Shown: piece by piece, positions 6,519 through 62,590 of the stretch
Numbering within the stretch: the first letter of the stretch is position 1
How the letters are laid out: each line of letters begins with the position of its first letter
Assembly: GCA_951406725.2 (NCBI GenBank)
Contig: OX597826.1
Span: forward strand, 69,006,001 to 69,070,000
Length of the DNA stretch: 64,000 nucleotides
From: Octopus vulgaris
Lineage: Eukaryota
Reading direction: 5' to 3'
The notes under the pieces: model-generated
What the model saw: only the letters and a program-made list of their open reading frames with translations
What the model was told of the DNA's origin: nothing
Databases searched by the model: none
Translations under genes and position numbers: made by a program

Positions 6519-6532
6519 TACCTACCTGTTAA

Positions 6533-6647: not shown

Positions 6648-6680
<33 letters not shown>

Positions 6681-6922: not shown

Positions 6923-7168
6923 TTTACCATGTTGAGTCACAAGATTTCGGTTTGTCACGGATGATATTTGGTAATTTGTATCTCAATGTTATCTCCTTAA
7001 TTTCACACAAATTGTTGTCCAATCGTTGCTGATTTTTTTCTTTATTTTCATATATAACATATGTTTTAATTGTAATATAACATTTGTTTTAATTGTAATT
7101 AGATCCAATTAGATATTATGCAGAATGTGACCACCTCATATATGTACACACAGACACACACACACACA

Positions 7169-7235
<67 letters not shown>

Positions 7236-7615: not shown

Positions 7616-7781
7616 GGCATCCGGTAAGTAGCTTACTTCCCAACCACATGGTTCCGGCTTCAGTCCCACTGCCTGGCACCTTGGGCAAATGTCTTCTACT
7701 ATAGCCTCGGGTAGACCAAAGCCTTGTGAGTGGATTTGGTAGACGGAAACTGAAAGAAACTCATCGTATATGTGTATGTGC

Positions 7782-7839
<58 letters not shown>

Positions 7840-8066
7840 TTGTGTGTAAATGTTTCTGTGTTTGTCCTCCCCCCCTCCCCAATATCACTTGACAAGCGAT
7901 GCTGGTGTGTTTATATCCCCGTAGCTTAGTGGTTCGGCAAAAGAGACCGATAGAATAAGTAGTAGGCTTACAAAGAATAAGCCCTGGGGTCGATTTGCTC
8001 GACTAAAAGGTGGTGCTCCAGGATGGCCGCAGTCAAACTACTGAAACAAGTAAAAGGGTAAAAGTG
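7616..8066 (+). mobile_element. SINE family A, near full length
   Basis: Aligns by eye with the other family A copies. Confidence 0.9.
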
Positions 8067-11071: not shown

Positions 11072-11574
<503 letters not shown>

Positions 11575-12046: not shown

Positions 12047-12496
12047 GATTTATATTAAATAATTCTCATTATGTAAATACAGGCGTTCACCAATACATTC
12101 CTTCCCCACTCGCTCCCTTTCTATATATCTTTATACACACAGACACACACACACACACATACAGACACACACCACACACAGCCATAAATGTATATACATA
12201 CGCACATACACATACACATATACACACTCATATACTTATATACTTATTTTAGAGAATCTGAAGGTCTATTTCGTTACTACAATTTCTAAATATACTCCTT
12301 AAAATGAAATAAAATCTCCTTTGTCATTCAGTTGATATATTTGATGATTTATGTTGCGTATAGGTATATATGTGTATATATGTATGCATCTGTATGCATC
12401 TGTATGTTTGCGTTTATGTATAAGTATGTATATGTGTATGTATGTACCTATCTATCTTTCTGTCTATCTATGAATATGTGCATACATACATGCAAT

Positions 12497-12546
<50 letters not shown>

Positions 12547-12634
12547 CATGCATAGGTACAAACATACATACATACATACATGCATAGGTACAAACATACA
12601 TACATACATACATACATACATACATACGTACATA

Positions 12635-13392
12635 TGTTAGTAGAAATCTCCGAGATGATAGTGACATCGATCATCAAAGCGGTTTATCATGGACCAATAG
12701 CCGGATTACTACTCGTACCTCACTCTTTGAAGGGTATGTGTTTGCAATCCAGGAACAGGAAATATCAACCAAGTACCTGATGCACAAAAGGGATAGAGAT
12801 GCAGGAAGAGCCATAAAATATGACACTCGATGCAGACTTTGTGGAGTTCACACTAAAGATATGACCCACAACCTAAGCAGTTGTCTGAAAGTGTCATCAC
12901 GGGATCATCTACCGATGAGACACGATGTTGTAGCTAGGACACTCTATGATGAAATCCGTCGAAAGGATAATCTCGAGGACAAAGAATTAAGAACCCACAA
13001 TATGGTAGAAGCCATAGCCATCTATAATAAAAATGAATACTGGTGCAATGTACCAGTGAAGATCTCAATGAGATGAAAGCACAACAGACCTGATATAATG
13101 ATTTGGGATCGAGAAGAGAAACTGTGCACAGTTGTGAAAATTAGCTGCCCAGTAGATGCTAACATAAAGCAGAAGATCAATGAAAATGAGAAAACCTATT
13201 CTTAACTATTGAGAAATCTGCAGTTACTCTCTCCAGAATAAAAGTTCAGGTTTATACGTGTAATTATTTGGACCCTGAGATATGTAACACACCACCTAAA
13301 TACCAATCTTGTGAAATTAGGCTTCTCAACACCAGAAAGAAGAAAGTTATTTCGAAGTCTAGAGATTCAATCCATCACCGGAACTGTAAAAG
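12635..13392 (+). mobile_element. R4/Dong-like non-LTR retrotransposon ORF C-terminus (CCHC knuckle + restriction-like endonuclease), degenerate
   Basis: AIQEQEI..CRLC..H..SSC..RHDVV, then HNRPDIMIWDREEK..ISCP (PD-D/E motif); contains internal stops; preceded by (CATA)n. Confidence 0.8.
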
Positions 13393-14561: not shown

Positions 14562-15120
14562 ACGTACGTGCAAGTATGTGTGTGTGTGCATGTATATATT
14601 ATATAAGTACATATGTTTCAACATGTGTATGTACATATTAATATATATGTAATTGCAGTATAAATGTGTAGATCTTGGTCTATACGTGTGCACACGTATG
14701 CAAGCTATTCTGCGTTTATACGCAAGTATATGTAAATACTGCGGGCTAAATTCCTTGAATATTTTGCATATTGTTGCAATTTCATAATGGCTTGTAATTA
14801 TAACTTCGTAGCCAAGTTATTTTCGCTTTGTGAAGCCCAACCTCTCAAGACTGGTACGGAGGCAAGAAATTATCTTACCTGGAGTCTTAATAATGAAAGG
14901 TATAAATCTAATGCTCCATAGCTTTGCTGTAATTACTCGCGATTACAAATTAGTTTGATACAAATGTGTTCCTTTTAGATTTCATTTTACGCTAAACGTC
15001 GGCTGTACAAACAATTTCTTTTGGAGTGTGCATTTGGCCTTGGTCTTTGTATTGGCACTGGTTTGCCTACACCGCATTAATGTCTTAACAAAGACAGTCT
15101 TTCAAAATTCGTTTATATTA

Positions 15121-15277
15121 TAAGCTTGCTTCCCAACCACATGGTTCTGGGTTCGGTTCTGCTGTATGACACGTTCCGCGGGTAACATCTACTTATAGCC
15201 GTCTGCCAATCAAAACCTTTTGAGTGGATTAGATAACTGAAACTTAAAGAAGCCTGCCGTATATAAATATATGTATA

Positions 15278-22888: not shown

Positions 22889-22890
22889 TT

Positions 22891-23663
22891 AAATGCCCTG
22901 ATGCGGTAGCACATAGTAGCTCTTATGGCTTCTAGGCTTAACTTATTGGAAGTGTTATCATGTACATTGTTTGACTTCGTATAAAATATGGGCTACAGCA
23001 AAATATTCTGCTCAGTACCACAGATTTGCTTGTCAGTTGTTTGACCTTAACCAGTTGAGCATGTGGCTGACAATATGTACATTTCCGATCTTGAGCAGAA
23101 GTAGTGGGGGAGTATCATAGCCGTGTGTTGAAAGGCATTCTTAGAGGTTTGGATAATTCACCTTTGGAAACCTGGATGATTCGTTCAACATCCTTAACCC
23201 TTTAGTGTTCCGATTATTCTATCAAACATAATGCTTATTGATTGCCATTGATTTGAATTAATCATGCATTTTCTCATATCTTCAAGATCTTGATGGTGTA
23301 ACTACTTAATGTAGAATAACATTGTAGGGTAGGTGTGAGAGCCTGGATCTGGTCAGTTTGAACATAAAACAGATTAACTATTTTGGCCGGATATGGCCGG
23401 TTTAAATACTAAAGGGTTAAACAAGCCTTATTCAGGGACCGTTTGAGAGGGATGGGTTACTCGACCAGAAGAAAATTCTAACTGAGCCCCACCTGCTAGG
23501 TCATGCGCTGTTTGTCTCGAAAAGAGATCACCATGTCGCTCACATATGCTTGTAATGCATGTGCCTGGTGTACCCTTATCAGATGGGTAGTAATGATGAG
23601 TATACTGGGCTTCGTATATTTTACTGCAGTGTCACTTTGATGGCATGCACTGCTCTCTCACTC
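22891..23663 (+). mobile_element. Non-coding interspersed repeat (family E) embedded in (AAT)n arrays
   Basis: Second copy at 55028-55454 (minus); (AAT)n at 22636-22890 and 23664-23728. Confidence 0.8.
23198..23416. mobile_element. piggyBac-type MITE with TTAA target duplication
   Basis: TTAA|CCCTTTAGT...ACTAAAGGG|TTAA; the family E copy near 55146 has a single TTAA at the same site. Confidence 0.85.
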
Positions 23664-23729: not shown

Positions 23730-23937
23730 CTTTTCTACTAGAAGCACATGTCTTCAAAATTGGCGGTGATGGTGTTATGGTTCTTGTTATTTAGACAGAG
23801 ATAAATATACAAAACTAATGCCGCAAAGCCACGGTGGAAACCTCTGAGTGGTGGTGCACCCTGGAAGAATTCGCAGACACATCACTGGCAGTTCTACTGT
23901 TTTTGATGGACAAAATGTTGCAGCAGATTGTACAGCA

Positions 23938-24094
23938 AGAGTGGCTGTGTTGTAAGTAGCTTGCTGACCAACCACATGGTTCTGGGTTCAGTCCCACTGC
24001 GTGGCACCTTAGGCAAGTGTCTTCTAGTATAGCCTCGAGCCAACCAAAGCCTTGTGAGTGGATTTGGTAGACGGAAACTGAAAGAAGTCCGTCG

Positions 24095-24143
<49 letters not shown>

Positions 24144-24349
24144 TTGTGTGTCTCTGTCCCCTAACATCGCTTGATAACCGATGCTGGTGTGTTTACGTCC
24201 CCGTAACTTAGCGGTTCGGCCAAAGAGACCGATAGAATAAGTAATAAGCTTACAAAGAATATGTCCTGGGGTCGATTTCTTCGACTAAAGGCGGTGCTCC
24301 AGCATGGCCAGAGTCAAATGACTGAAACAAGTAAAAGAGTAAAAGAGTA
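23938..24349 (+). mobile_element. SINE family A, full length
   Basis: Head, internal microsatellite and GTAAAAGA x2 tail. Confidence 0.9.
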
Positions 24350-24360
24350 ATCATATCTAA

Positions 24361-24537
24361 CCTACTTCTTTACTACCCACAAGGGACTAAACACAGAGAG
24401 GACAAACAAGGACAGACAAACGGATTAAGTCGATTATATCGACCCCTGTGCGTAACTGGTACTTATTTAATCGACCCCGAAAGGCTGAAAGGCAAAGTCG
24501 ACCTCGGCGGAATTTGAACTCACAATGTAACGGCAGA
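24361..24537 (-). mobile_element. SINE family B, headless 3' part
   Basis: Matches the 183-bp units at 29491-30041. Confidence 0.85.
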
Positions 24538-24672
24538 ATCTAACCAAAAGGAGGAAACGATTACGGCTTTCTATTTCCATAAAGGGGAAAAAATGAAGTA
24601 AATATTCCTAAATAAATCTGTAATATCCTTAAGAACGAGTCTTTACAACATTTCCATTGATCTAATGTAAAT

Positions 24673-25070
24673 AGGCGCAGGAGTGGCTGTGTGGTAAGTA
24701 GCTTGCCTACGAACCGCATGGTTCTGGGTTCAGTCCCACTGCGTGGCATCTTAGGCAAGTGTCTTTTGCTATAGCCCCGAGCCGACCAATGCCTTGTGAG
24801 TGGATTTGGTAGGCGGAAACTGAAAGAAGCCTGTCGTATATATGTATATATATGTATTTGTTTGTGTGTCTGTGTTTATCCCTCTAGCATTGCTTCACAA
24901 CCTATGCTGGTGTGTTTTCGTCCCCGTCACTTAGCGGTTCGGCAAAAGAGACCGATAGAATAAGTACTGGGCTTACAAAGAATAAGTCCCGGGGTCGATT
25001 TGCTCGACTAAAGGCGGTGCTCCAGCATGGCCGCAGTCAAATGACTGAAACAAGTAAAAGAGTAAAAGAG
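24673..25070 (+). mobile_element. SINE family A, full length, possible TSD TAATGTAA
   Basis: TAATGTAA at 24663-24670 and 25071-25078. Confidence 0.9.
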
Positions 25071-25630
25071 TAATGTAACCCAGAATATTGTAGTTTGTAC
25101 AGAAAAACACAATTAAAGCGCTACACCGTATTCGAACTCTGATATCTGCAAGATTTACTAAGTATCTACTGAGCCATACAACCTCAACTAAAGAGAACAT
25201 GTGTCGTCTATTTATTAGTTCCTGTTAATCGATTATCAATTCGTGTTTATGTATAGACAAAGGAAAACATAACTCATTGAGAGCTTCATGATCAGAGAAC
25301 ATTGAAACTTCCGGTTTTTGTCTCTTAAACAAATTTCACTTTTCAAGTGCATTATGCCTTTACACACATATGCACAAATGTATGCAAGTATATATGTATG
25401 TATGTATGTATATCTCACACACTAGATGTATCTGCATATATGTATCTATTTGTATCTTCATATACATATGCATAGATTACACACACATATGTATATATCT
25501 ATATACATATATACGTATGCATATACATGTATATATACATACATATGCATAAATATACACTCATATATATATATACTACATTATCTACATATATGTATCT
25601 ATTTGTATCTATATATACATATGCAAGGTT

Positions 25631-26747: not shown

Positions 26748-28154
26748 CAAGTGAAGTATTTTATATGATTTCAAATTTGCCATACAAATTTAAGAGCGAA
26801 GTGTTCTGATGAATTTAAAGTCGTACATGTACAATGTTCTCTAAAGATTTACACGTCTGGTATTTCCAATTAGTGAATGAACACGTAAAGATGAAATCAT
26901 GTCTGTGATGAGAGCCTGAGACAAATTTAAGAGGTTGTTTTAGTTGAATTGGAAATGATTACTGAATAATGACGAAAAGAAATCTAATTTTTGTGATCTT
27001 AATTATACCGATGTGTATAATATTTATCGTGTGTATAGAAATGGGAAACGTTATTAGCTGTAATTTGTAGTTTTAGAAAGATCTGAAAGAGTTTTCTATG
27101 TTATGAAGAAATGGCTAGACATGTTGTTTCGAACAGAATTTCTCTCTTCGGTGAAAAATACTCCGTACTTTTAATTTAATTCTTGCCTGGCTAGCTTTCG
27201 TTCATAACTGTAGATGTATTGTTTATAGATTTCCATATCCAAAAAACTATTTTCAGCTTATCTCAAATTCGTCACTGAGGTGAAGAAATCACGCCGAAAC
27301 ACCAGTTTCTTGCAACCCGCCTGTGATATGAACGATGCCTTGTGTTTTTAACACACAAGTCTCTTCGCGAAGTTTTTCTGACGTAAGTCATTACAGCGAA
27401 TGTCCTTACCTCTGCTTATTATGCATATTATAAATGGTATATAGACCGGTGTTTAAATAACGGTTGTTTCAGGTTTATTTACGTTATTGGGTTAGAAGAA
27501 AACAAAACACCTTCTGAAGTAGTATCAAATATGAGATAGCTCCTAAATTGTGTACTCAGAGACATTTCGACTAATCAATAGCACTAATTATATACCAATA
27601 AAACTACTTTGAGAGGAATAATACGGAGATTCATAATGATAGCTGACGAAGATATAGACAGTTAATTTAGTAAAGCTACCATAGTCAACTAATGATTACT
27701 TCACTAAAATTACAAATCGTTAAAAGTGTAACGAATTATTTACCAGTCTAATTTTGAATATTTTAAACAATTTACATTGAGTACAATATATTATAGATAC
27801 TAAGTGCATTCCAACAGTTTTAAGACATTTTCAGGAGCGATAGTCATTAATTTCAAACAACTATAGGTCTCACAATGATTCTTAAATTTTTGGCATTTTT
27901 TCTTTTGTTTTTTGTTTTTTTTTGTCATAAAAATAATGCTATGTTTATTATGCATTAAGTATTGTCTCTCTGTATGCTAAAGTTTTCTAGAAATATCCTT
28001 TGATCATTTTCAAAGATACGAAAGTATGAAATGTTTTCTTAATCGTAACTGGAATTTTGTTACATTATTTTATTTGGAAATCTTTTTGGTTAAAACTAGC
28101 ATAGATCATCCGCAATGTTATGAATTGTTTCGGATATGCATACACCACATAGAT

Positions 28155-28317
28155 AGGCGCAGTAGTGGCTGTGTGGTAAGAAGCTTGCTTACCAGCCACA
28201 TGGTTCTGGGTTCATTCCCACTGCGTGGCACCTTGGGTAAGTGTCTTCTACTATAGCCTCGGGCCGACCAAAGCCTTGTGAGTGGATTTGGTAGACGGAA
28301 ACTGAAAGAAGCCCGTC

Positions 28318-28380
<63 letters not shown>

Positions 28381-28643
28381 TGTGTGTGTGTGTGTGTATG
28401 TGTGTGTGTGTGTGTATGTGTATGCTTGTGTATCTGTGTTTGTCCCACCAACTTCGCTTGACAACCGATGCTGTTGTGTTTACGTCCCCGTAACTTAGCG
28501 GTTCGGCAAAAGAACACGATAGAATAAGTACTAGGCTCACAAAGAATAAGTCCTGGGGTCGATTTGCTCGACTAAAGACGGTGCTCCAGCATGGCCGCAT
28601 TCAAATGACTGAAACAAGTAAAAGAGTAAAGAGAGTAAAGAGT
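28155..28643 (+). mobile_element. SINE family A, full length
   Basis: Aligns with the other copies. Confidence 0.9.
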
Positions 28644-29324
28644 GTAGATGATATTTATCAGTTAAATCGTAGGAATTGAAGTGATTGTTTAGTAAAAGGG
28701 AAAAATTTAGTAAGCCCTCGAACAAAATATCTCGCTATATTTTCAACAAGTCCTTAAGATCTGATTTCGAGTCCTGCCTAGATAAATGATGATATCAAAA
28801 AAAATATAACACAAAGAAACTGGGAACAATATTTATCGATTATACCACTTTTTTTACTAAGAGGCCTCTTTTTCTATTTTACAAGTAAGTATTATTGTCT
28901 TTAAATATTACATGACTTTCTGCTGTAACACTAGGTGTCCTTCTATCTTGCAAATATCTGTCGCCGTGTGGTCTTTCAGGGATGCAGGGCAGTGATTGTG
29001 CACAACATCAATTTTAAAATGTTGTACACTAATTCGCGTGTTATGTAGTGTACGACAGCGTTAGATATATTATTTTGTTAAACTGTATCTGCGTTTCATG
29101 TGTAATAAGCGTGTTGTTTTCCGTATTTTAGTATCGGACGTTGCTTGTTTAGGGCATGTGGAGTGCGTGGGTGTGTGTAGGTGTGAGTGTTATATGTATT
29201 AGCTTTAGCGTCAGCATGTGAAGGTTCCTATAGTATTAATGGTTCCCACCTGTGTTGAATAACAGGTGTGTAATTGGTTTAGGTTAGATAGTCACGTGTC
29301 AGTTACGACAGCTTTTGTAATATA

Positions 29325-30333
29325 TTCTTTTCTACTCTCGGCACAAGGCCTGCAATTTTGGGATAGGGAAGGGCCAGTCGATTAGATTGACCCCAGTATG
29401 CAACTGGTACTTAATTCATTGACCCTGAATGGATGAAAGGCAAAGTCAACCTCGGTGGAATTTGAACTTAGAACGTAGAGACAGATGAAATACCTATTTC
29501 TTTATTACCCACAAGGGGCTAAACATAGAGGGGACAAACAAGGACAGACATAGGTATTAAGTCGATTGCATCGACCCCAGTGCGTAACTGGTACTTAATT
29601 TATCGACCCCGAAAGGATAAAAGGCAAAGTCGACCTCGGCGGAATTTGAACTCACAACGTAACGCAGACGAAATACCTATTTTTTTATTACCCACAAGGG
29701 GCTAAACACAGAGGGGACAAACAAGGACAGACATAGGTATTAAGTCGATTACATCGACCCCAAGTGCGTAACTGGTACTAAATTTATCGACCCCGAAAGG
29801 ATAAAAGGCAAAGTCGACCTCGGCGGAATTTGAACTCACAACGTAACGCAGACGAAATACCTATTTTTTTATTACCCACAAGGGGCTAAACACAGAGGGG
29901 ACAAACAAGGACAGACATAGGTATTAAGTCGATTACATCGACCCCAAGTGCGCAACTGGTACTAAATTTATCGACCCCGAAAGGATGAAAGGCAAAGTCG
30001 ACCTCGGCGGAATTTGAACTCACAACGTAACGCAGACGAAATACCGCTAAGCATTTCGCCCGGCGTGCTAACGTTTCTGCCAGCTCGCCGCCAACGTAAC
30101 GCAGACGAAATACCGCTAAGCATTTCGCCCGGCGTGCTAACGTTTCTGCCAGCTCGCCGCCAACGTAACGCAGACGAAATACCGCTAAGCATTTCGCCCG
30201 GCGTGCTAACGTTTCTGCCAGCTCGCCGCCAACGTAACGCAGACGAAATACCGCTAAGCATTTCGCCCGGCGTGCTAACGTTTCTGCCAGCTCGCCGCCA
30301 ACGTAACGCAGACGAAATACCGCTATGCATTTC
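29325..30333 (-). mobile_element. SINE family B concatemer: 4.5 x 69-bp heads, 3 x 183/184-bp bodies, 1 variant-tail body
   Basis: Body units start at 29491, 29674, 29858; head units at 30024, 30093, 30162, 30231, 30300. Confidence 0.9.
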
Positions 30334-30336
30334 ATC

Positions 30337-30508
30337 GAGATGCTTAGCGGTATTTCGTGTCTTTACGTTTTGAGTTCAAATTCCACCGAGATCGGTTTTG
30401 TCTTTTATCCTTTCGGTGTCGATAAATGTAAGTACCAGTTGCGTATTGGGGTCGATCTAATCGACTAGCTCCTTTCCCCAAATTTCGGGCCTAGAATAGA
30501 AAAGGATA
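30337..30508 (+). mobile_element. SINE family B variant, 5'-truncated, head-to-head with the concatemer
   Basis: GAGATGCTTAGCGGTATTTCGT..GAGTTCAAATTCC..GTCGATAAA..TACCAG. Confidence 0.85.
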
Positions 30509-30812
30509 TTTCACTTCCACCTTATAGTCTACTACCGACCATTATGCAGAAGGAGCTTTCATACAGCACGCATGGACTCTCCTTTCATCAGTGTAATCAA
30601 GATGTGTGTCAGTGACTTTCAGACATTACTCAACAAAGTATAGATGCTAACATACTTCAATGTTAATGTTTCCATATACGGAAACACTGAGCCTTGTAAA
30701 ATATACATACAATCAGGTCTTTAATCTGTTTAATCTAAAAAGATTGCAATTTACATGAATGTTCTCTCCAAGAAATGCTACGCAAGATCCCGGTTTTACG
30801 ATAAACTGCTCC

Positions 30813-31968
30813 GTGCGTGTATACGTGTGTGTATGTGTGTGTGTGTGCGTCTTTGTGTATATATGCGTGTGTGTGTGTGTGTGCGTGTTTGTGTATATAT
30901 GCGTGTGTGTGTGTGCGTGTTTGTGTATATATGCGTGTGTGTGTGTGTGTGCGTGTTTGTGTATATATGCGTGTGTGTGTGTGTGTGCGTGTTTGTGTAT
31001 ATATGCGTGTGTGTGTGTGTGTGCGTGTTTGTGTATATATGCGTTTGTGTGTGTGTGTGCGTGTTTGTGTATATATGCGTGTGTGTGTGTGTGTGCGTGT
31101 TTGTGTATATATGCGTGTGTGTGTGTGTGCGTGTTTGTGTATATATGCGTGTGTGTGTGTGTGTGCGTGTTTGTGTATATATGCGTGTGTGTGTGTGTGT
31201 GTGCGTGTTTGTGTATATATGCGTGTTTGTGTATATATGCGTGTGTGTGTGTGTGTGCGTGTGTTTGTGTATATATGCGTGTGTGTGTGTGTGTGAGTGT
31301 TTGTGTATATATGAGTGTGTGTGTGTGTGTGAGTGTTTGTGTATATATGAGTGTGTGTGTGTGTGTGGGTGTTTGTGTATATGTGAGTGTGTGTGTGTGT
31401 GTGCGTGTTTGTGTATATATGCGTGTGTGTGTGTGTGTGCGTGTTTGTGTATATATGCGTGTGTGTGTGTGTGTGCGTGTTTGTGTATATATGCGTGTGT
31501 GTGTGTGTGTGCGTGTTTGTGTATATATGCGTGTGTGTGTGTGTGCGTGTTTGTGTATATATGCGTGTGTGTGTGTGTGCGTGTTTGTGTATATATGCGT
31601 GTGTGTGTGTGTGTGCGTGTTTGTGTATATATGCGTGTGTGTGTGTGTGCGTGTTTGTGTATATATGCGTGTGTGTGTGTGTGTGCGTGTTTGTGTATAT
31701 ATGCGTGTGTGTATGTGTGTGCGTGTTTGTGTATATATGCGTGTGTGTGTGTGTGTGCGTGTTTGTGTATATATGCGTGTGTGTGTGTGTGTGCGTGTTT
31801 GTGTATATATGCGTGTGTGTGTGTGTGCGTGTTTGTGTATATATGCGTGTGTGTGTGTGTGTGTGCGTGTTTGTGTATATATGCGTGTGTGTGTGTGTGT
31901 GCGTGTTTGTGTATATATGCGTGTGTGTGTGTGTGTGCGTGTTTGTGTATATATGCGTGTGTGTGTGA
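30813..31968. repeat. Minisatellite of GCGTGTTTGTGTATATATGC(GT)n units (~30-36 bp, about 33 copies)
   Basis: Fixed core with a variable (GT)n spacer; produces the 410-457 aa pseudo-ORFs. Confidence 0.95.
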
Positions 31969-32132
31969 GAAAGAGTGTGTATGTGTGTGTCTGTATGGCA
32001 CTAAGAGTGTGTGTATCAGTGTGTGTAAGTGCATGAGCTTGTGTGTGTGTTGCTGTATAAATATACATACGTATGTGCATGTGCAAACACTTGGACTTAT
32101 AGATTAATCAATCTCTATCTCTGATCCTGTAT

Positions 32133-34453: not shown

Positions 34454-35072
34454 TCACACATATATATACGTGTGTGTTTGTGTGCAATAGTAAACACCTA
34501 ATATAATAATGAGCGTAGTGTTTTTATATATTGGTATATATATGTATATATTTCTCCAAAATCAAGCAGTAGGGGTGAAGGTAGAGGTGAGAAAATAGTA
34601 ATTCAGTGGAGGAGAAGTAGTGAGAGTAATAGCCTGGCCGAGAGGGCGTGTGAGTAAGTAATAGCAATGAGAGTGAGTCAGTGGTAAAGAAAGAATCGCG
34701 TATCTACTACTATAATTATCTACTATAATAATACTCTTGTGTATCTACGTAAATAGAGTAAATAAATTTTTGATTGCTTTTAAATATTTCGGCATAAAAA
34801 TTCATTACCCCCACACAATATGCTATCGTTACCATCGAGTAACTTCTTTCAGAACAACAACAGAAACACACAAACATCAACAGTCAGCCACCCCAAATCT
34901 AACGAAAATTTTGTATGTATTAAAATAAACTACTGTCATCCACCCGTTTCTTCCATAAATATTACTAACAACATTAAGAAAATCTTCTGCAATCTGTCGT
35001 CAAGACATCGTTGATAAGCATACCGCGTATTATGATAGTGCATAAGACAAGGAAACCATTGTTTTGAGTAAC

Positions 35073-36180
35073 GTATGCATGTATGTATGTTTGTATGTAT
35101 GTATGTATGTATGTATGTATGTATGTATGTATGTATGTATGTATGTATGTATGTATGTATGCATGTATGTATGTATGCATGCATGCATGTATGTATGTAT
35201 GTAAGTATGTATGTATATATGTATGTATGCATGCATGTATGTATGTATGTATGTATGTATGTATGTATGTGTGTATGCATGCATGTATGTTCGTATGTAT
35301 GTATGTATCTATGTATGTATGTATGTATGTATGTATGCATGTGTGTGTATGCATGTATGTATGTATGTATGGATGGATGGATGGATGGATGGATGGGTGG
35401 ATGGATGGATGGGTGGATGGATTGATGCATAAACTTATGTAGATATATGTGCGTGTGTGTATATACATACATATTTGAAATGAATGTATACCTTCATACA
35501 TGTATGTGTGAATTCATATATGGATATATGCGTGTGCACGCACACATACATACACACACACGTGTGTGTGTATGTAGCTTGCACTCTCAACCCCACGCAT
35601 ACACGTATACACAACCGCATACACACACATATACACACGCACGTACACGCGCACACACAACTCCATACACGCACACATACATGCAGTCACAACTACACGC
35701 ACATACAAATAAACACGCACACGCATACACGCGCAGAAAATCGCACATATACCTTCCCACACAACTCCTCATTCAACCACACATCCACACACACGTACAT
35801 ACACATGTACACACGCACATACATTCACACGCACACACGTATATACACTCACACACATACGCAAACACGCACAAGCAAATAAACCCACACATACCTCCCA
35901 TACACAGCAACACGCACTCATATATACACACACCATACACACACAAGACACACTCATACATACACGCACACAATTATACATACATGAACACAGACATGCA
36001 CATATAAGCACACACAAACACACATAGAGTAACTTACATTTACTCCACAGACACAACCACCACACAACCACACGCGTACACATATACCCACACGCACGCA
36101 CACATACATACACACACAGACACACTATGCACGCAAAACACACACACACAACATATGCATACACGCACGCACACATACTT
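35073..36180. repeat. (TATG)n, (GGAT)n and decayed (CA)n tracts
   Basis: Direct observation. Confidence 0.95.
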
Positions 36181-38404: not shown

Positions 38405-38645
<241 letters not shown>

Positions 38646-38646: not shown

Positions 38647-38970
38647 GTTTCTTTATTGGCCACACAGAGCTGCACACAGATGGGACAAGTTACAAGGTAG
38701 AGCTTTTCTTTTGGGGGATGAAAAAAACAAAAAACAAAAGAAACAAAAATAAAATAGATATGTTTCTTTATTAGACACACAGAGCTGAACACAGAAAGAC
38801 AAATTTCGAAGTAGACCTTTTCTTTTTGGGGAGAAAAAAGGGGAGGTTGGTTTTCGATCAAAAGGGATCGTAAAAAAAGGAAAGAAAGAGAAGAAAAAGA
38901 AATAAAAAAATCGATGAATAGGGATCGTGTATCACAGAAATCTCATGATGTAAAATGTAAAGGATGAAAC
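38646..38970 (-). mobile_element. Two tandem 3'-UTR fragments of the Tx1-like element (38646-38754, 38761-38970)
   Basis: Homologous to 45948-46195 (GTTTCTTTATT.GCCACACAG.GCTG.ACACAGA..GATCAAAAGGGATCGTAAAA..ATCACAGAAAT); flanked by (GATA)n. Confidence 0.85.
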
Positions 38971-43235: not shown

Positions 43236-43509
<274 letters not shown>

Positions 43510-43590
43510 AAGATAAGATCGTTATTTAAAATACCGATCATATCAGGTGGCTAGCATGGGAATAAAAACCTCATAGGTAATAATTATTAT

Positions 43591-43733
43591 TAAAAATTAT
43601 AATGATGGATATCTAAGAGATACCGCCATGCTAGATATAGCAGCCAATACTTGACTCTATAACAACGAGTCAAGTATTAGCTGCTATATCTAGCATGGTG
43701 GTGTCTCTTAGACACCCTTGATTATAATTTTTA
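43591..43733. repeat. Long inverted repeat / fold-back hairpin
   Basis: 46-bp core arms 43612-43657 and 43667-43712 with a 9-nt loop, plus outer arms. Confidence 0.9.
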
Positions 43734-45947: not shown

Positions 45948-47394
45948 TGTTTCTTTATTAGCCACACAGGGCTGCACACAGATAGAACAAATTACAAGGT
46001 AGAGCTTTTCTTTTGAAGGTTTAAGAAAGAAAAAAAAAAAAAAAAAAAAGGAAGGGGGAGTTTCGATCAAAAGGGATCGTAAAAGGAGAGAAAGAGGACA
46101 AAAAAAGGGGGTTTAAAAAAAGGGGGGAGGAAAAAAAATTGATCAATAGGGATCGTTATCACAGAAATGTCGATATGAAGTGTAAAGGGGAGGACAGGTG
46201 AGGTTTACCCGTGCAAAGAAAAGCCTACGGAAAAGACCACGGTAACCTCGGTCAATGATGTCACATTTTATATTTCTTTTTTTTTTTTTTTGCAAATAAG
46301 CAACTCTCTGTTTTCGATTTCTGGGTTCATAGGACTATGCTCAAGGTGGCTTCGTCATTCATACGTGCCATTCTTGCTACATTCACCCATCTTTTTTTAA
46401 AACATTCGCTAGACAAAACTTGCCTCTCTACTCTCACTTTCCTTTTCAAGTGGTACTTGAAGAAGTTGATGAGAGATTGACCAGAGAGGAAAGTGTTTGT
46501 CTCCAATCCTTTCAGACGCGTCCACCAGATACATTCTTTCGCCATAGCCACAAGGATGATGAAAATAGCTCTTCCTTCCCGTTTGAAGGAAGGAGGCGTG
46601 ACAATATTGACGATAGACTCAGCTGATAAACCGACTCGTCCCACACGTGACAGCAGTTGTTCGACATAAGCCCACAGGTCGGAAATTGTTGGACACTGAA
46701 CGAGTGCGTGCAGAACGGTTTCGTCGCTCTGACCGCATCTCGGGCAGGTCGGCCCCGTGTTTCTCGAGCCGTGTCTGTAGAGCTTATCCCGAACGGGTAG
46801 CGCTTCTCGGTAGCACTGCCAGGCCAGGGATCTCTGGAAGTTGTCCATGGGCCCTGGCCCGAAAGTCGTCCTGAACAGGCGGGTCAGGTACTCCTCGTCG
46901 ACGTCCAGGTTCGCCCCGAGCTCGTCGTCGTACCTCCCTTCCACTAAACCCCTATAGAATGCTTTGGTTGTGTTGAAGTCACTTAAGGTCGACCCAGGAC
47001 GGCAGAGTTGCTTGAGAGCAACGCGACACTCGCGGTGCCATTCGCCCTTCCTCGGCCTCTTTTTGATCCACGACTGCAGTTCGATCATGGAGACGAGCTG
47101 CGGGAAAGCGTGCCTCACAAACGGCGACCACACCTGTTCACCGTCGTCTACATAGAGCCAGAGATGCCGCAGTCTCAGCGCGTGTCTGCGCATCATCAAC
47201 CACGGCATGCCCAGCCCTCCTTTTAACGGGTGTTGACAGCAAATGGATCGCCTGACCATCGGGACGCATCCTTTCCACAAGAAGCGAAAGAGGATGCGTT
47301 GTAGTTTGGTGATGGTAGGGTCGGGACAAGGTACGACGGTCAGGCGGTAGTAGATGACGGACGCGATGTACGTGTTCGCCACCTCCGCTCGACC
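45948..47394 (-). mobile_element. 5'-truncated L1/Tx1-clade non-LTR retrotransposon inserted in (GATA)n
   Basis: GC-rich island with open ORF2 C-terminus; 3' UTR ends AATAAAGAAACA-(TATC)n; (GATA)n at 45883-45947 and 47395-47510. Confidence 0.9.
46327..47394 (-). CDS. Partial ORF2 (post-RT region + zf-RVT) of the Tx1/L1-like element; no start codon, truncated
   Basis: GR..VAN..I.S..YY..P..FLWKG..P..GGLG.P and CPRCGQSDETVLHALVQC; ~355 codons without a stop. Confidence 0.85.
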   Translation of the reverse strand, partial: GRAEVANTYIASVIYYRLTVVPCPDPTITKLQRILFRFLWKGCVPMVRRSICCQHPLKGGLGMPWLMMRRHALRLRHLWLYVDDGEQVWSPFVRHAFPQLVSMIELQSWIKKRPRKGEWHRECRVALKQLCRPGSTLSDFNTTKAFYRGLVEGRYDDELGANLDVDEEYLTRLFRTTFGPGPMDNFQRSLAWQCYREALPVRDKLYRHGSRNTGPTCPRCGQSDETVLHALVQCPTISDLWAYVEQLLSRVGRVGLSAESIVNIVTPPSFKREGRAIFIILVAMAKECIWWTRLKGLETNTFLSGQSLINFFKYHLKRKVRVERQVLSSECFKKRWVNVARMARMNDEATLSIVL

Positions 47395-47407
47395 AGATAG
47401 ATGGATG

Positions 47408-48404: not shown

Positions 48405-48774
48405 CTCTCTCTGAGTATATATGTGTGTGTTTGTGTGTCTGTCTGACCATATATCTACACACAACACGCAGGCTTGTGTGTGTATATATATGTACCGGTA
48501 TAATCTGAGTTTATGAGCGTGTAGTGTGTGTAGGGAGAGGCGAAATGTTCAAAACAGTATTCAATGCCTTGGGACAAGATATGTTTTTTTTTTATGTTTA
48601 TTGCAGATGGGAATACAATATTAGTTCTTTGAATTTTGTGTTCCCGAAAATCAGACTGGATATGAAGTCATGAATTCCAATCCGGCACTGACTGGGAACC
48701 TGATATTCAAATAAACACATGTTAGATTCCAGATTCAATATATACATGCATACATATTATACAATAAACAGGAT

Positions 48775-48870
48775 TTATATTTTGTTGTTGATGATGAAAT
48801 ACCAAGGAACCTTGTATCTAGGTTAGAAACGTTTGAAATAAAACTGAATAATGACAGACATACATACACA
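48775..48870 (+). mobile_element. 3' terminal fragment of the R4-like family followed by CATA repeats
   Basis: GTTGTTGATG..CCAAGGAA..TCTAGGTTAGAA..TTGAAATAAAACTGAATA matches the minus strand of 50705-50810. Confidence 0.6.
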
Positions 48871-48944: not shown

Positions 48945-49015
<71 letters not shown>

Positions 49016-49581
49016 CAGTCTCTAGGATTTTAGTTTTGTTCCTCATCCGTCAGGCCTGTATTATGTAATAAAAACGAGAAAGAGTTCCCTATACACTGAA
49101 CATGCTGTGAGGAATGGACGATCCAACGTTTCGTGCACTGTCATTATTCAGAGAGAAAAGTCGAAAAGAGAAAAATTACTTAGGGACTGCATAGTTTCAT
49201 AGCCGCTAAGTATGCTGCCTCTTTGTATTTTAACCTCGAATGTTAATTCATTAATTTCTCTTTTCAACTTTTCCTCTGAAGAAGGAATATGTCCGAAACA
49301 GTGGATTTTCCACTCACCATGCAAGTTCACTGAATTCCTTTTATCGATTATATTAAACACCCCTCCCAACCACACACATATAACGACGTATGGATAATGT
49401 ATCATTCGGCTACAGCTGTTTCAACGATTTTTTTCTTGATTAAAGGAAACATTACGTCATTAAAAAAAAAACTGTTTCCATCAGGTGAATGCATGGATCA
49501 CAACATACAAAACATTCTAAAGCTAGCAGTGTGTGCAAATTCATGATTCTATGTCTATTGCTGGTTGGTTCATTTTGGTAG

Positions 49582-50287: not shown

Positions 50288-50440
50288 AGTGAATGGTTTT
50301 ATACCCATATATATATATGCTTGTGTATGTGTTTTTACATACATATACATGTGTGTGTATTTATATATGTACGTATACATATATGTATAAACACACACAT
50401 ATAACTAACAATTTATTAGTCATGTGTATGTATGTATGTA

Positions 50441-50694
50441 TAGTGGTGGCCAAGGTTTAGAACATAGGTCTGAAAATTAGAATTTTATATTAAATGCCCA
50501 AAGTTATATTAAAAATAAGCAATTTGTTCTAGAACCATATTTTTCATTTGGCTTATTTTTCCATTTAGATATTGAACAATTGCATCAGTTATTAAGCAAG
50601 TATATCTCTATATTGTTTATACTTAAATCGATATGTACTAGGGCATAACAATTTTAACTTTTAAAAAGTTTTTACAAACGTTTGGCCACGACTG
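50441..50694. mobile_element. Tc1-type MITE flanked by TA
   Basis: TA|TAGTGGTGGCCAAGGTTT ... AAACGTTTGGCCACGACTG|TA. Confidence 0.7.
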
Positions 50695-50696
50695 TA

Positions 50697-51945
50697 TGTA
50701 TGTAAGTAAGTCAATATTCAGTTTATTTCAAGATTTCGTGCCAATAGAGAAAGAACCGGGTTCTAACCTAGATCCAAGGCACCTTCCTTGGAATTTTAAT
50801 ATCAACAACAGGGTATATTTTATATGTATGTATATATGTATGTATGTATGTATTTATGTATGTATGTATGTATTTATGTATGTATGTATGTATGTATGCA
50901 TGTATGTATGTATGTATGTATTTGCTTCAGACGGATCTATGGCATTAAGTGGAATGACTGCATCAGTGATCTTGAAATACTCGAAGGCTCTCGGTGTGGA
51001 AGTATAGAAGCAAAGGCTCAGATGGCGTGGTCATCTGGTCAGAATGAAGGGTTCAAGGATGCCAAAACAACTCTTTTATGGAGATTTAGCTAAAGGAGAA
51101 CGACCTCCACATAAACCAAAAAAGAGGTATAAAGACTTGCTGAAGGCTTCTTTAAGAGATACTTTAAGAGAAGGATTGTGCATGAGGGGACAGCCACGTT
51201 TGAGAAATCTTGAGTTGCACATGAGAAAGTAAGGAGGGATGTCAGGAAGGGCATCGCTGTTAGACTTCCAGAAGGGAAGGGTCTTCCTTTGATTCGGACA
51301 TGCAATGTCTGTGCAAGACCCTGCCTCAGTAAAGCTGGACTCATGAGTCATCTTCGTAGTCATAAAACGAGACAGATGAGTGACAACCTGGCCACTGGTG
51401 GTGGTGTAACACACCACACTAATCATATCTGTCAGGCATGTGGAAGAGAGTGTAATTCGGCAGGAGGACTTAAACGACATGCAAAGGTACATGAAGCCCA
51501 GTTACAACTACAGCCGGCTATTACCAGTAAAGGTTTTAGTTACCAATTTTGTACAATACATTGTAAATCTTTAGCTGGGCTAAAAAGTCACATTCAATCA
51601 CAGCACCAGTAACAGTTAAGCTTCGTGCAATGGCCTTACTCGATAACGAGGGGGCAGCCATAATGTATGTATGTATATATGTATTATGTATGTTTCTATG
51701 TATGTTTTCTCTTATGTATGTATTCTCATGCATATAGTTACATACCTAGACATGCTCATATATATTTAAATGATAAACTTCTGGAAACTTTTACAGATTT
51801 TTACAGTTCCAGTGATGGATGGACTGGATCTGTAGTCTTCGAATTATCTTTTTCCCTTTCTGGTTCTGAGAAACCTAATTTCTTAAGGTTGGTATTTAGG
51901 CAGTGTTTTATATATCCCAATGTCCCAATAATTACAAATATAAAC
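50697..51945 (-). mobile_element. R4-like element 3' end (ORF end 51760-51945, 3' UTR to 50697), interrupted by an RTE insertion
   Basis: 51800-51945 is homologous to 13250-13390 (IIGTLGY..LNTNL.KLGF); 50705-50810 is homologous to 48775-48855. Joining the two segments into one element is inferred. Confidence 0.7.
50918..51662 (+). mobile_element. RTE-clade LINE 3' fragment with three C2H2-type zinc fingers, in (TATG)n
   Basis: RRIYGIKWND.IS; WRGHLVRM..SRMPKQLFYGDL..G.R...PKKRYKD; CNVC..HLRSH, CQAC..HAKVH, YQFC..HIQSQH; frameshifted. Confidence 0.85.
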
Positions 51946-51956
51946 TACTATGTATG

Positions 51957-51990
<34 letters not shown>

Positions 51991-52074
51991 TGTATGTATG
52001 TATGTATGTATGTATGTATGTATGTGTGTGTATGTATGTATGTATGTATGTATGTATGTATGTATGTATTATAT

Positions 52075-52217
52075 GTAGAAAAATACAAACTGGGACAAGA
52101 ACGTAAAACATTTAGGAGACGATACAAAAAACACGGACGGGACATTCGAAGCCTTCAATCTTCAGTCAAGAAGCGGATCATCCTCGCAATTTCGGCTGAT
52201 TAATCTTGAGATCGCTG
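52075..52217 (-). mobile_element. Possible Penelope pLTR-like fragment
   Basis: CAGCCGAAA..CTGAAGA and a T-rich tail similar in style to 34118-34332; no complete ribozyme. Confidence 0.3.
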
Positions 52218-54374: not shown

Positions 54375-54606
54375 GGCGGTGAGCTGACAGAGTCGTTAGC
54401 ACGCCGGGCGAAATGCGTAGCCGTATTTCGTCTGCCATAACGTTCTGAGTTCAAATTCCGCCGAGGTCGACTTTACCTTTTTTTACTTTCGGGGTCGATA
54501 AATTAAGTACCAGTTACGCACTGGGGTCGATGTAACCGTTGTTATCTGTTTGACTGTCCTTGTTTGTCCCCTTTATGTTTAGCCCCTTGTGGGCATTAAA
54601 TAAAGA
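54375..54606 (+). mobile_element. SINE family B, full-length monomer
   Basis: GGCGGTGAGCTG head, GAGTTCAAATTCC B box, GGTCGACTTT..GGGGTCGATAAATTAAGTACCAG (Meta-like domain), CCCCTTGTGGG tail. Confidence 0.9.
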
Positions 54607-55027
54607 TATATACGTTTATGTATATCCTCAGTTATCCCTAAAAACAGGAGTCCCATGACATACTTTCGGGTTGTCTACCATACCCTAGGAATCACCAACA
54701 AATCCATAATTTTAGTTATACCATGGCTTCGCTTAATTTGCCACCATATTTCCCACTCTCACATGCACGAAAGAATCGTATCTTGACTTGTGTAAAAATC
54801 TGTCTTCTTGTGTGTGCTTTTTCTTTTTTCCATTGTTGGAGACTACGACTGTAATCTGAAGCACGACCTTGAAGGACTCCACTAATTATTTTTCGACAGT
54901 CTGGTTAATTTCAGGGACAAAAAGAAACCAACATCGATTGTCAAATAGATGGGGACAAACGGTGACACAGGCACATACATACATACTCACACACACACAC
55001 ATATCTATATACAAGACAAGTTTCCAC

Positions 55028-55454
55028 GCGACATGATGGACTCATAGCAAGATAAACAGTGCATGAACTTGTCGGTGGGGCCGAGTTAGAATTTTCTTCA
55101 GATCGAGTAGCCCATCCCGCTCAAAAGTTACCTGAATAAGGGTTGTTTAAGGGTGTTAAACAAATCACCCATGTTTCCAGGAGTGAATTATTCGAACTGC
55201 AAAGAATCCCTCACAACACATGGCTATGATGCTCCCCCACTACTTCTGCTCGTGATCAGAGATGCACATATCGTCAGCCATTAAGGGACATGGTCAACTG
55301 GTTAAGGTCAAACAACTGACAAGCAAATCTGTGATATTAAGCAGAATATTTGCTGTAACCCATCTTTTATAACAAGACAAAACAATGTACATGATAACAC
55401 TTCCAATCAGTTAAGATCAGTTAAGATACTGCCTGGTACTGCATTAGGGCATTT
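55028..55454 (-). mobile_element. Family E repeat, second copy (no MITE)
   Basis: Reverse complement of 22891-23540 without the piggyBac MITE. Confidence 0.85.
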
Positions 55455-55850: not shown

Positions 55851-55898
55851 ATTATAATATTTTTAAAATCATTGATGTAACTCTTCACAAACGTAAAC

Positions 55899-56146
55899 AG
55901 TCAAGACGAAGAGCGCGATTCGATTGTATTAGATATTTTATTACTTGAACAATATTTCAACAGTACGTCTGTCCTTGTCAAGGTTTGTGGACTCTGGTTG
56001 CTCTCGTTTATATTTTACGTTTAAATTTCTGTAACTTTGAATTTTTATCGCTCCTTATTTTGAACTTGACAAAGACAGACGTACTCTTGAAATATCGTTC
56101 AACTAATAAACTATCTTACAATAGAATCGCGCTCTTCGTCTTGACT
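55899..56146. mobile_element. MITE-like element with ~87-bp imperfect terminal inverted repeats
   Basis: AGTCAAGACGAAGAGCGCGATTC.. / ..GAATCGCGCTCTTCGTCTTGACT. Confidence 0.75.
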
Positions 56147-56706: not shown

Positions 56707-57655
56707 TCTGGTAGTGTTTTTAGGATATTGTTTTATGAAATTTATTGCGTATCTTTTGGATTTGGAAAATTAATCGAATGTCGGGCGATGTTCCGCGGTT
56801 GATGCTTTCTGGGAACAAATTGTACCTTTCGTCTCGTCACGGATGGCCTTTGTGCCGATGTTAGCACTTACGTTGTGCGAATATACAGAATGGAAAAAAA
56901 ATCACTGAACGACTGATTGTCCGGATGAGTGGTTTCCGTACCTGAGCGAATGAGTGCCTGCGTAATTGTGTGTACGTGTCAGTGAAATTGCTGAGTGGTT
57001 GCGCGTTTGAATGATTGAATGCTTGTAAGTGCTTGAGTGATGATTTCGACAGGAAATGCGTGGGCTTGTCAGTGAGTGCATGACTGAGTGAAACTGAATG
57101 AGTGAACGTCTGCTGTCTGGAAAATAAACCAAACGCAGACACAAGTCCGATATTTTGGTGATTAAACCTGATGAAATGGAACTTAAACGATTTTATTGTT
57201 ATTGTCATTGCTATTGTAGATGTTGTTATGTTTGGCGTCGTTATTGTTGTAGTTATTGTATAGCTTAAACCCCCCGCGGGCCGGCTCATATCGTGCATAC
57301 TTATGCGAGGCATCATACAACCACCATTTTAAATCGTCTTTATGATGCGACGTAGTTATACATTCTCCGACGTGTCTTCAACTTATTTACGACCTATCTG
57401 TCTATCTGTATGTCTCTATGTCGAGGCAGTGTGTCATTGAACTATGATACCGATATTTGATGCGACTGTTTGATAATGTGCCTATGTGAACAACACAAAA
57501 ACAACAACAACGACAATAACAACGACAGCAAACACAACTTCGAAAGCTACTAAAACTATAATTAATATTACGACTACAAACGATAGGAACAACAAAGATG
57601 ATAAAACGATGACATAAACGGCAGCAGTAATATTCAAAAGCATTACAGACGTTAC

Positions 57656-58200: not shown

Positions 58201-58302
58201 CAATATATTATCAAATACATCAACGATTACGTTCAGAATAATGCTAACATCATGGAAATATCTATCTTCAAGAAGAATAACAATAATTTCTAATTTAGAC
58301 AC

Positions 58303-58468
58303 AGGAGTGGCTGTGTGGTAAGTAGCTTGCTAACCAACCACATGGTTCCGGGTTCAGTCACACTGCGTGACATCTTGGGCAAGTGTCTTCTGCTATAGCC
58401 CCGGGCCGAGCAATGCCTTGTGAATGGATTTGGTAGACGGAAACTGAAAGAAGCCTGTCGTATATATG

Positions 58469-58499
<31 letters not shown>

Positions 58500-58687
58500 A
58501 TGTGTTTGTCCCCCTAGCATTGTTTGACAACCGATGCTGGTGTGTTTACGTCCCCGTCACTTAGCGGTTCGGTAAAAGAGACCGATAGAATAAGTACTGG
58601 GCTTACAAAGAATAAGTTCCGACTAAAGGCGGTGCGCCAGCATGGCCGCAGTCAAATGACTGAAACAAGTAAATGAGTAAATGAGTA
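58303..58687 (+). mobile_element. SINE family A, full length with a small 3' deletion
   Basis: Aligns with the other copies. Confidence 0.9.
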
Positions 58688-58803
58688 AGGGCAATGATAT
58701 TTTGAGAAGAGAAGCTTCGTCAAGTCAATGAAATCGGTCCCAGTATATGAATGACACTTTAATTCTTAGATCTTGAGTATTAACTACTGCTATTTTATCA
58801 CGT

Positions 58804-59062: not shown

Positions 59063-59431
59063 CTATTTTATCGCGTCATGTAAACGGAAACGTCTAGAAA
59101 ACACAACTAGTCGTTCAGTGAGTTTTTTGTTTCCATTCGGCATAATCACACAACGTAAGAGCTAACATCGCCACAACGGCCATCCGCGACAAGACGAAAT
59201 GCACGGTTTGTCCCTAGGAACCACCAGCCGCGGAACATCGTCCGAAAGACGATTTAAAATGGTGGTTGTACTTTGCTTCACATAAGGACGCTCGATATGA
59301 CTTAGCCCGGAGGGCTAAGCTATACAATAACTACGACAATGATGACGCCAAACACAATAACTATAATAGCAATAACAACAACAATAAAATCATTTTCGTA
59401 AGGCTTTAGTCGAGCAAATCAACATTAGTAT

Positions 59432-59600
59432 TTATTTACGTTATTTACATTTGACGGATTTTTGTCCTCATCTTGTTTGTTGTTAACACAACGTTTCGTC
59501 GGATATACCCTCCAGCCTTCATTAGGTGTCTAGAGCAAATTTCGAACCTGGGTTCTCATTCCTAAGGTATTTTTCGATGTTGTTGTTGTTATTATTATTA

Positions 59601-59661
<61 letters not shown>

Positions 59662-59672
59662 CATCATTATCA

Positions 59673-59736
<64 letters not shown>

Positions 59737-59829
59737 CATCATCATCATCATCATCATCATCATTATTATTTCGATCACTGCCTGGAATCGAACTAGGAAT
59801 CTTGGGTTAATAGCCCGCACTGTTAACCA
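59432..59829 (-). mobile_element. tRNA-headed element with internal (AAT)n and a hammerhead-bearing Penelope-like tail
   Basis: Minus strand: TGGTTAA..GGGCTATTAACCC..GTTCGATTCC, microsatellite, hammerhead motif at 59485-59530, tail GTAAATAA x2. Confidence 0.7.
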
Positions 59830-59830
59830 A

Positions 59831-59876
59831 AACACCTGGTGAAGGCTGGAGTGTATATCAGCCGAAACATTGTGTT
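59831..59876 (+). ncRNA. Minimal hammerhead ribozyme-like motif (inverted copy of 59485-59530)
   Basis: AACAC-CTGGTGA-A-GGCTG..CAGCC-GAAACATT-GTGTT; the two-copy consensus gives CTGATGA..GAAACGTT. Confidence 0.65.
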
Positions 59877-59898
59877 AACGACAAACAGGATGAGGACA

Positions 59899-59950
<52 letters not shown>

Positions 59951-62174: not shown

Positions 62175-62347
62175 TGTGGCTGTGTGGTAAGTAGCTTGTT
62201 TACCAACCACATGGTTCCCGGGGTCAATCCCACTGCGTGACACCTTCTTGGGCAAGTGTCTTCTACTATAATAGCCTTGGGCCGACCAAAGCCTTGTGAG
62301 TGGATTTGGTAGACGGAAACTGAAAGAAGCCTGTCGTATATATGTAA

Positions 62348-62379
<32 letters not shown>

Positions 62380-62590
62380 TTGTGTGTTTGTGTTTGTCCC
62401 CCTAGCATTGCTTGACAACCGATGCTGGTGTGTTTATGTCCCCGTTACTTAGCGGTTCGGCAAAAGAGACCGATAGAATAAGTACTGGGCTTACAAAAGA
62501 ATAAGTCCCGGGGTCGAGTTGCTCGATTAAAGGCGGTGCTCCAGCATGGCCGCAGTCAAATGAGTGAAACAAGTAAAAGAGTAAAAGAGT
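62175..62590 (+). mobile_element. SINE family A, near full length
   Basis: Aligns with the other copies. Confidence 0.9.

Follow-up and report, generated by a model that had tools for sequence, protein, structure and literature searches.

The window analysed here, a 64-kb stretch of Octopus vulgaris DNA, is intergenic animal DNA (GC 35%), and simple repeats occupy 15% of it when perfect and about 24.5% in total. Its 173 repeat arrays sum to 15,771 bp, with AT (4.4 kb) and AC (3.7 kb) as the biggest classes. At 50421-52215, an R4/Dong retrotransposon copy, an RTE-type LINE, a Tc1-type element and a Penelope-like piece all lie in the ACAT repeat class. The first-pass annotation had read the first three as a nested stack, and its R4-like element (reverse strand), RTE (forward strand) and Tc1-type element were all recovered in place. 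It had also put them in one CATA/TATG array; the repeat is the same throughout, but it is divided among four TATG tracts (50425-50441, 50823-50921, 51663-51705 and 51949-52069). On the forward strand, the (TATG)25 array at 50823-50921 lies to the left of the RTE and is likely the expanded CATA run of the R4/Dong 3' UTR; the imperfect tract at 51663-51705 is either the RTE tail or the second half of the split UTR run; and the (TATG)30 array at 51949-52069 stands at the 5'-truncation junction of the R4/Dong copy, reads CATA in the sense of that element and is likely its original target. The piece at 52070-52215, with TATG on both sides, is the fourth user of the class, and we take it to be Penelope-like as judged by eye. 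Evidence was drawn from the window, from contigs of four public runs (at most three studies) aligned to 50922-51948, from four metagenome loci (L001-L004) and from the literature. Exact patterns of the host repeats had no match in viral, metagenome or prokaryote-genome contigs, and protein scans of viral contigs and genome contigs returned no relatives.

The R4/Dong copy at the locus (copy A) runs on the reverse strand and is found in three parts: the ORF end and proximal 3' UTR at 51706-51948, with the last ~60 codons and a stop at 51766-51768; an inner tail with what is likely the distal 3' UTR at 50695-50822; and an outer (CATA)n tail at 50421-50440, which ends in the TA adjoining the Tc1-type element. 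Read on the reverse strand, 51948-51766 corresponds to the C-terminus of a protein with reverse transcriptase (RT), a CCHC finger and a restriction-like endonuclease (E 5e-7 to protein P0169), and copy A shares 80% identity over 147 bp with copy B (12636-13392, forward strand). Copy B contains the CCHC finger and endonuclease region, with the motifs CRLC..H..SSC, RHD and RPD-E; a CATA array (12481-12634) stands at its 5' junction and its 3' end has been replaced by a SINE piece. The distal piece of copy A (50707-50822, reverse strand) recurs with its CATA tail at 48762-48853 on the forward strand, where it forms copy C, a distal piece alone with CATA on each side. Copy D (14745-15121, reverse strand) is decayed, with a SINE hiding its 5' junction and a decayed CATA/CA array downstream. 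Between the RT and the C-terminus, a profile built from full-length relatives fits R2 proteins (E 2e-50; profile positions 368-1135). Copy B and its relatives carry, C-terminal to the RT, a CCHC finger and a restriction-like endonuclease, and they have no APE domain, as do members of the Dong/R4 clade (Dong of Bombyx mori, DongAg and DongBg), and, like Dong/R4 elements, the window element has a microsatellite at both ends. We take the R4/Dong label from this domain order, from motifs and from reports of Dong-R4 in Octopus. Unlike Dong in the narrow sense, whose target is (TAA)n, the window family uses (CATA)n, and its flanks are CATA. In O. vulgaris, Dong-R4 elements are described as abundant, with recent activity, 5 families and 1,129 young insertions, in the available text of PMC13282606.

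Relatives of the family occur in the metagenome loci, two of which, L001 and L002, are 41% and 37% identical to copy B; proteins near these two are among the best matches of copy B (E about 1e-58). In an RT tree with unnamed rows, copy B was unplaced and fell in no supported group with L001 or L002. Directly after the UTR, both loci have (ACAT)n in sense (14.5 units in L001 and 18 in L002), so that an ACAT tail is present in 2 of the 2 loci with a visible tail, L003 and L004 stopping too early to show one. L002 contains an intact R4/Dong-type ORF of 1,161 aa (304-3789), followed by a 600-bp UTR and the CATA tail; Pfam recognizes RT and zf-RVT in this ORF, no APE and no Myb domain, and Atlas lists Myb families at 0.76-0.85 for its residues 1-90, values that serve as leads only. 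The window copies themselves lack the N-terminal part in which R4/Dong elements have a Myb/SANT-like domain without zinc fingers. The L002 locus begins with one ACATA unit. Because L001 and L002 display tails and no upstream flanks, they document a conserved tail and not targeting. Unlike L001 and L002, the window family likely has an extra CATA run inside its 3' UTR.

The Tc1-type element at 50441-50694 is 254 bp long, non-coding (longest ORF not over 55 aa) and 72% AT, with terminal inverted repeats of about 13-16 bp and a TA on each side. Its 15-mer end motif has two matches in the 64 kb, inverted with respect to each other and forming the two ends of the element; the chance expectation is a mean of 0.19 matches, two were reached in 4 of 100 shuffles, and deletion of the element together with one TA puts the TATG phase back, leaving an empty site in phase. 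On the motif count against shuffles and the restored phase, chance inverted repeats were rejected as the source of these ends. The right end matches 14 of the 16 bases of a Tc1 primer published in PMC3680223 (as given in the available text). Tc1-type terminal inverted repeats and a TA duplication are features that the element has in common with non-autonomous Tc1/mariner elements (MITEs); MITEs are short, non-coding and of high copy number, and the window contains one copy of this element. The earlier description of a Tc1 MITE in the CATA tail is borne out for the ends, the TA and the tail position, and the element is a candidate MITE. Runs of ACAT contain 255 of the 7,382 TA sites of the window, and because a single insertion that needs just TA is at hand, the element carries no information on repeat preference.

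The RTE-type LINE is a 5'-truncated, frameshifted 3' end at 50923-51664 on the forward strand, with three C2H2 fingers, a stop at 51610-51612 and a 3' UTR of about 50 bp, after which TATG follows; a target duplication would be indistinct inside the array. The relic aligns to residues 923-1164 of its best relative, P0002 (E 7e-22), a single 1168-aa ORF in which Pfam finds APE, RT and three C2H2 fingers; the single-ORF APE-RT structure of the RTE clade is thus seen through P0002, the window holding the C-terminal quarter only. Single-ORF APE-RT structure, 5' truncation and a microsatellite after a short 3' UTR are likenesses to the RTE clade, including RTE-2_OV of O. vulgaris and lepidopteran RTEs; to RTE-2_OV and to an O. 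bimaculoides RTE the likeness is at the level of the clade, and these may be separate families. A host zinc-finger gene at 51214-51612 was considered and rejected, as the reading frame is the continuation of an RT thumb and thousands of contigs look like it. Between 8,221 and 19,397 contigs per run aligned to 50922-51948, and the RTE and R4/Dong families are both high-copy. Upstream of 50923 the RTE continues in 7 and 3 contigs of two of the four runs, which fixes its truncation point beside the array; its final bases before that point are similar to the array, as joining by microhomology would give. Since 51659-51693 is skipped in the contig alignment, the RTE's own tail and its target are indistinguishable there. 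The one RTE copy of the window has TATG on both sides, a setting that would also fit targeting by the RTE.

The first-pass annotation held that this RTE splits the R4-like element in its CATA-rich UTR. The pieces, strands and arrays of that account stand, and the RTE likely splits a single R4/Dong copy, copy A, with no bridging contig among those listed. The two reverse-strand R4/Dong pieces have the same orientation, are complementary and non-overlapping, and meet at the TATG tracts that border the RTE. Contigs that depart from the window at 51712 number 76-123 in each of the four runs, and they pass through a short TATG run into a T-run like the start of the distal piece (50816-50822), although agreement in the consensus of these loose ends is only 0.53-0.56 and the overlap with the distal piece is a T-run of few bases. 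An alternative interpretation is that the R4/Dong pieces are independent of each other, the first stopping at the internal run and the second being distal-only, and that they lie side by side with the RTE in a CATA array. Copy C provides an example of a distal-only insertion, being the distal piece alone between CATA tracts, no distal piece was found after copies B or D, and because of these two observations the pieces at the locus could be separate; in addition, none of the contigs listed in the four runs bridges the proximal and distal parts, the window holds no joined copy, and plants have side-by-side arrays of microsatellite-targeted elements (available text of PMC5907723). We nevertheless consider this alternative improbable because the two parts are co-oriented, complementary and without overlap where they join at the array, and because the loose ends at 51712 lead into a T-run resembling the distal edge. 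The accumulation of unrelated elements in one microsatellite is shared with the SaTar arrays of guayule and rice, but those arrays consist of Mutator-like DNA elements that are not nested, whereas the window retroelements are likely nested (PMC5907723, in part).

Links between families and repeat classes were scored at the junctions of 41 pieces bounded by hand from self-BLAST and reading, with the repeat class noted at each junction; as background, 21% of window positions lie within 12 bp of a simple repeat. Copy D was found after this scoring and is outside the table. Targeting was judged at 5'-truncation junctions because an element's own tail cannot supply their repeat. At these, ACAT in sense adjoins both readable R4/Dong copies (A and B, 2 of 2), against oriented ACAT backgrounds of 1.7% and 1.1% (joint probability about 2e-4, post hoc), and copy C starts in CATA. 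The L1/Tx1-like LINE has GATA on both sides in 2 of 2 copies, with a probability of about 2e-4 for its 5' junctions: a 3' part at 45948-47395 (reverse strand) has an open 357-aa frame and GATA arrays on both sides, and a second 3' end, in two pieces at 38647-38968 (reverse strand), likewise has GATA on both sides. Its assignment to a clade is weak (LINE-1 ORF2, E 0.11; APE-RT-zf-RVT proteins, E about 1e-6), and Pfam recognizes zf-RVT in it at E 3e-8. In the first of these copies, the open C-terminal frame with zf-RVT (46327-47400, reverse strand) is truncated exactly at the GATA array, and the copy is likely young. Beside the second, at 38407-38645, a TATC array passes into a GATA array in a perfect inversion adjoining the Tx1-like 3' end.

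Random insertion, with flanking repeats grown later from tails or proto-repeats or with insertions simply tolerated in repeats, would be favoured by a window that is 24.5% repeat, with 21% of its positions within 12 bp of one, and by the small counts. We consider such an absence of targeting very unlikely: repeat class and polarity agree at the 5'-truncation junctions of two families, at about 2e-4 each, SINE junctions stay at the background level, and the CATA tail recurs in distant R4/Dong relatives. R4/Dong at CATA and the Tx1/L1-like family at GATA look like specialists. Having one repeat class on both sides is a property that the latter has in common with the Tx1-clade elements Kibi and Koshi (TC and TTC) and with crocodilian Tx1, but its class is GATA/TATC, unlike the TTCC and TTTC of crocodilian Tx1 or the classes of Kibi and Koshi (PMC4494074, available text). 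Waldo, an R1-clade element with target ACAY, uses the same repeat class as the window R4/Dong (PMC3812793, in part); since it is an APE-type element of insects that differs in enzyme and clade, the shared class is likely convergence.

Other families follow no such rule. An unclassified family has AAT on both sides of its copy a (22890-23662, forward strand), and its copy b (55028-55453, reverse strand), with the same end, adjoins an ATC-class array. Copy a is split at 23197-23417 by an insert of ~220 bp that has short inverted ends and is bordered on each side by TTAA, as judged by eye and from a gap in the self-comparison. Penelope-like pieces have a repeat at 13 of 20 junctions, divided among five classes (AT 7, ATGT 2, ATT 2, ATC 1 and GT 1), and look like generalists. 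Self-inverted pieces lie beside (TA)n or (ATT)n at 7233-7615, 43507-43733, 49013-49350, 55880-56145 and 59440-59902, some of them with hammerhead-like core motifs by eye; they are putatively Penelope-like. The 150 of 158 Rfam matches listed for 33000-64000 were all sub-threshold microRNA matches on repeats, folding of four hammerhead-like motifs gave nothing above shuffles, and the fold of 52070-52215 was uninformative; because of these null results, the Penelope-like label derives from self-inverted structure and motifs.

SINEs, with a repeat at 6 of 44 junctions against the 21% background, have no link and look indifferent. The commonest SINE (10 pieces, including 2159-2578, 7623-8064, 11072-11571, 23935-24350, 24668-25073, 28150-28646, 58296-58690 and 62176-62590) contains an internal (TA)n(TG)n run, about 0.7 kb in total, and carries the two biggest repeat classes along passively. 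In one SINE family, the last ~50 bp match the GATA-flanked L1/Tx1-like 3' end (45948-46030 against 24360-24440, 29858-29960 and 54520-54615), a match reached in 0 of 500 shuffles, which suggests that the two may form a LINE-SINE pair; GATA occurs at 0 of 12 junctions of this SINE family. Elsewhere, at 29376-30333, a SINE is repeated as a tandem with a 184-bp unit (3.6 copies), after which comes a tandem with a 69-bp unit (4.5 copies) that is near-perfect; an inverted copy adjoins them at 30336-30509. A GT/AT minisatellite of 32 copies of a 36-bp unit occupies 30834-31990, and two long diverged inverted-repeat pairs (69-81%; 599-909 with 1203-1516, and 56772-57341 with 59103-59395) are possibly the ends of old DNA transposons.

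These patterns bear on the proposal of microsatellite niche partitioning, in which every family of retroelements would target and regenerate a repeat class of its own and the families together would make the repeat load. It gains from the 5' junctions of R4/Dong at CATA and Tx1/L1-like at GATA (2 of 2 each), from the use of the ACAT class on opposite strands by R4/Dong and the RTE, and from the addition of repeats by tails described in the available text of Tay 2010 (PMC2887409). The same text states that insertion into an existing repeat adds no repeats, whereas a tail does, and that RTE insertion is not sequence-specific. We nonetheless consider the proposal unlikely, because the ACAT class is common to four families at the locus, the AAT family sits in two classes, four LINE families touch arrays amounting to 12% of repeat bases with 9 of 13 GATA arrays and the two largest ACAT arrays having no such neighbour, and the 211 rows of a published insertion file for an O. 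bimaculoides RTE (PMC9115989, supplement 1, in part) include 10 with TA-type duplications, of which one has a CATA run. Two motif searches of that file found GTATG or GATAG duplications in 0 of 211 rows, and in one part of it no duplication was called in 15 of 19 rows; its method is biased against repeats and its family may be another than the window RTE, and a motif search of the available parts of supplement files 1-4 did not find the family sequence. The window pattern is therefore a partial specialization, not a clean partition. The statement that each family uses its own class is not supported here, given four families in ACAT, AAT family copies at AAT and ATC, and Penelope-like pieces in five classes; of the GATA and AAT families invoked alongside it, the first holds in 2 of 2 copies and the second does not.

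The further suggestion that these families drive an extreme microsatellite load finds no support in the window. Arrays touching the four LINE families number 16 of 173 and cover 1,905 of 15,771 bp (12%), and those touching any annotated element number 42 of 173 and cover 4,043 bp (26%), both figures being lower bounds, as old or single-copy elements are missed. AT and AC are the largest classes, 9 of 13 GATA arrays have no neighbour from the four LINE families, and neither do the two largest ACAT arrays (6531-6926 and 35070-35379). Most repeat DNA of the window has no recognized LINE beside it, and because LINE-touching arrays are just 12% of it, a driving role of these families is not demonstrated.

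We favour, with a probability of roughly 70%, the reading that the R4/Dong element inserted into CATA, the RTE in the CATA run of its 3' UTR and the Tc1-type element in a TA of its tail, one repeat class having been used by three unrelated families for different and mostly known reasons. What the three pieces are, how they are oriented and where they lie was established directly, as were the CATA junctions, the tails of the relatives and the TA duplication with its phase; the order of events is deduced from how the pieces are arranged. A 5'-truncated R4/Dong retrotransposon would likely have entered a pre-existing CATA microsatellite, where its putative endonuclease, likely steered by an N-terminal Myb-like domain, would cut (CATA)n and prime reverse transcription. 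The intact UTR order would then have been proximal part, CATA run, distal part and CATA tail. The RTE likely landed afterwards in the CATA run within the 3' UTR, and the Tc1-type element would have taken a TA in the CATA tail; both may be opportunists in AT/TA-rich slippery DNA that tolerates insertions, and the tracts may subsequently have been lengthened by slippage. The pile-up is real and made of known element types, and its nesting is likely.

CATA, rather than the reported TAA, is likely the target of the window R4/Dong family. Tentatively, and as something that we rate as possible but doubtful, an old and widespread Dong/R4 sublineage may have switched from TAA to CATA; its member in this genome, by carrying its target in the 3' UTR and tail, may with each insertion seed arrays in which it, the RTE, Penelope-like pieces and Tc1-type elements could land, with the Tx1-like family doing the same with GATA. 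The evidence is modest both for a Dong/R4 variant that uses CATA and for a Tx1-like family that uses GATA. Microsatellite-targeting retrotransposons have long been known, with targets given for Waldo (ACAY), Mino (AC), Kibi (TC), Koshi (TTC) and Dong (TAA) in the available text of PMC3812793, for Tx1 (TTCC/TTTC) and Togen (TG) in that of PMC4494074 and PMC4640811, and a bias towards (TA)n among Penelope-like elements in that of PMC8557442; the new part is narrow, namely CATA instead of the usual TAA of Dong at the ends of this family and of its two distant metagenome relatives, together with the likely CATA run within the 3' UTR of this family. A CATA-target Dong was not found in the mostly open-access literature searched, and Repbase, Dfam or the Zenodo library of PMC13282606 may hold one. 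Dong-R4, RTE, L1-Tx1, Penelope and Tc1 elements are described as abundant in octopus, and the available passages of PMC13282606, PMC8967140 and PMC9115989 give no target sites for them; PMC12988792 treats niches, and the word 'microsatellite' is absent from it.

Transposons nested in the repeat-rich DNA of animals are known, as are LINEs that target microsatellites, and the stack itself is therefore ordinary. A causal role of retroelement niches in the extreme repeat load would be of greater consequence, but the numbers from this window point against it. For the host, tetranucleotide markers may have multi-copy flanks in common. If the CATA preference holds genome-wide, TAA-using and CATA-using Dong elements would form a pair for locating the residues that set the target, in the Myb-like or the endonuclease domain, and the intact 1,161-aa ORF of L002 would be usable to test target choice.
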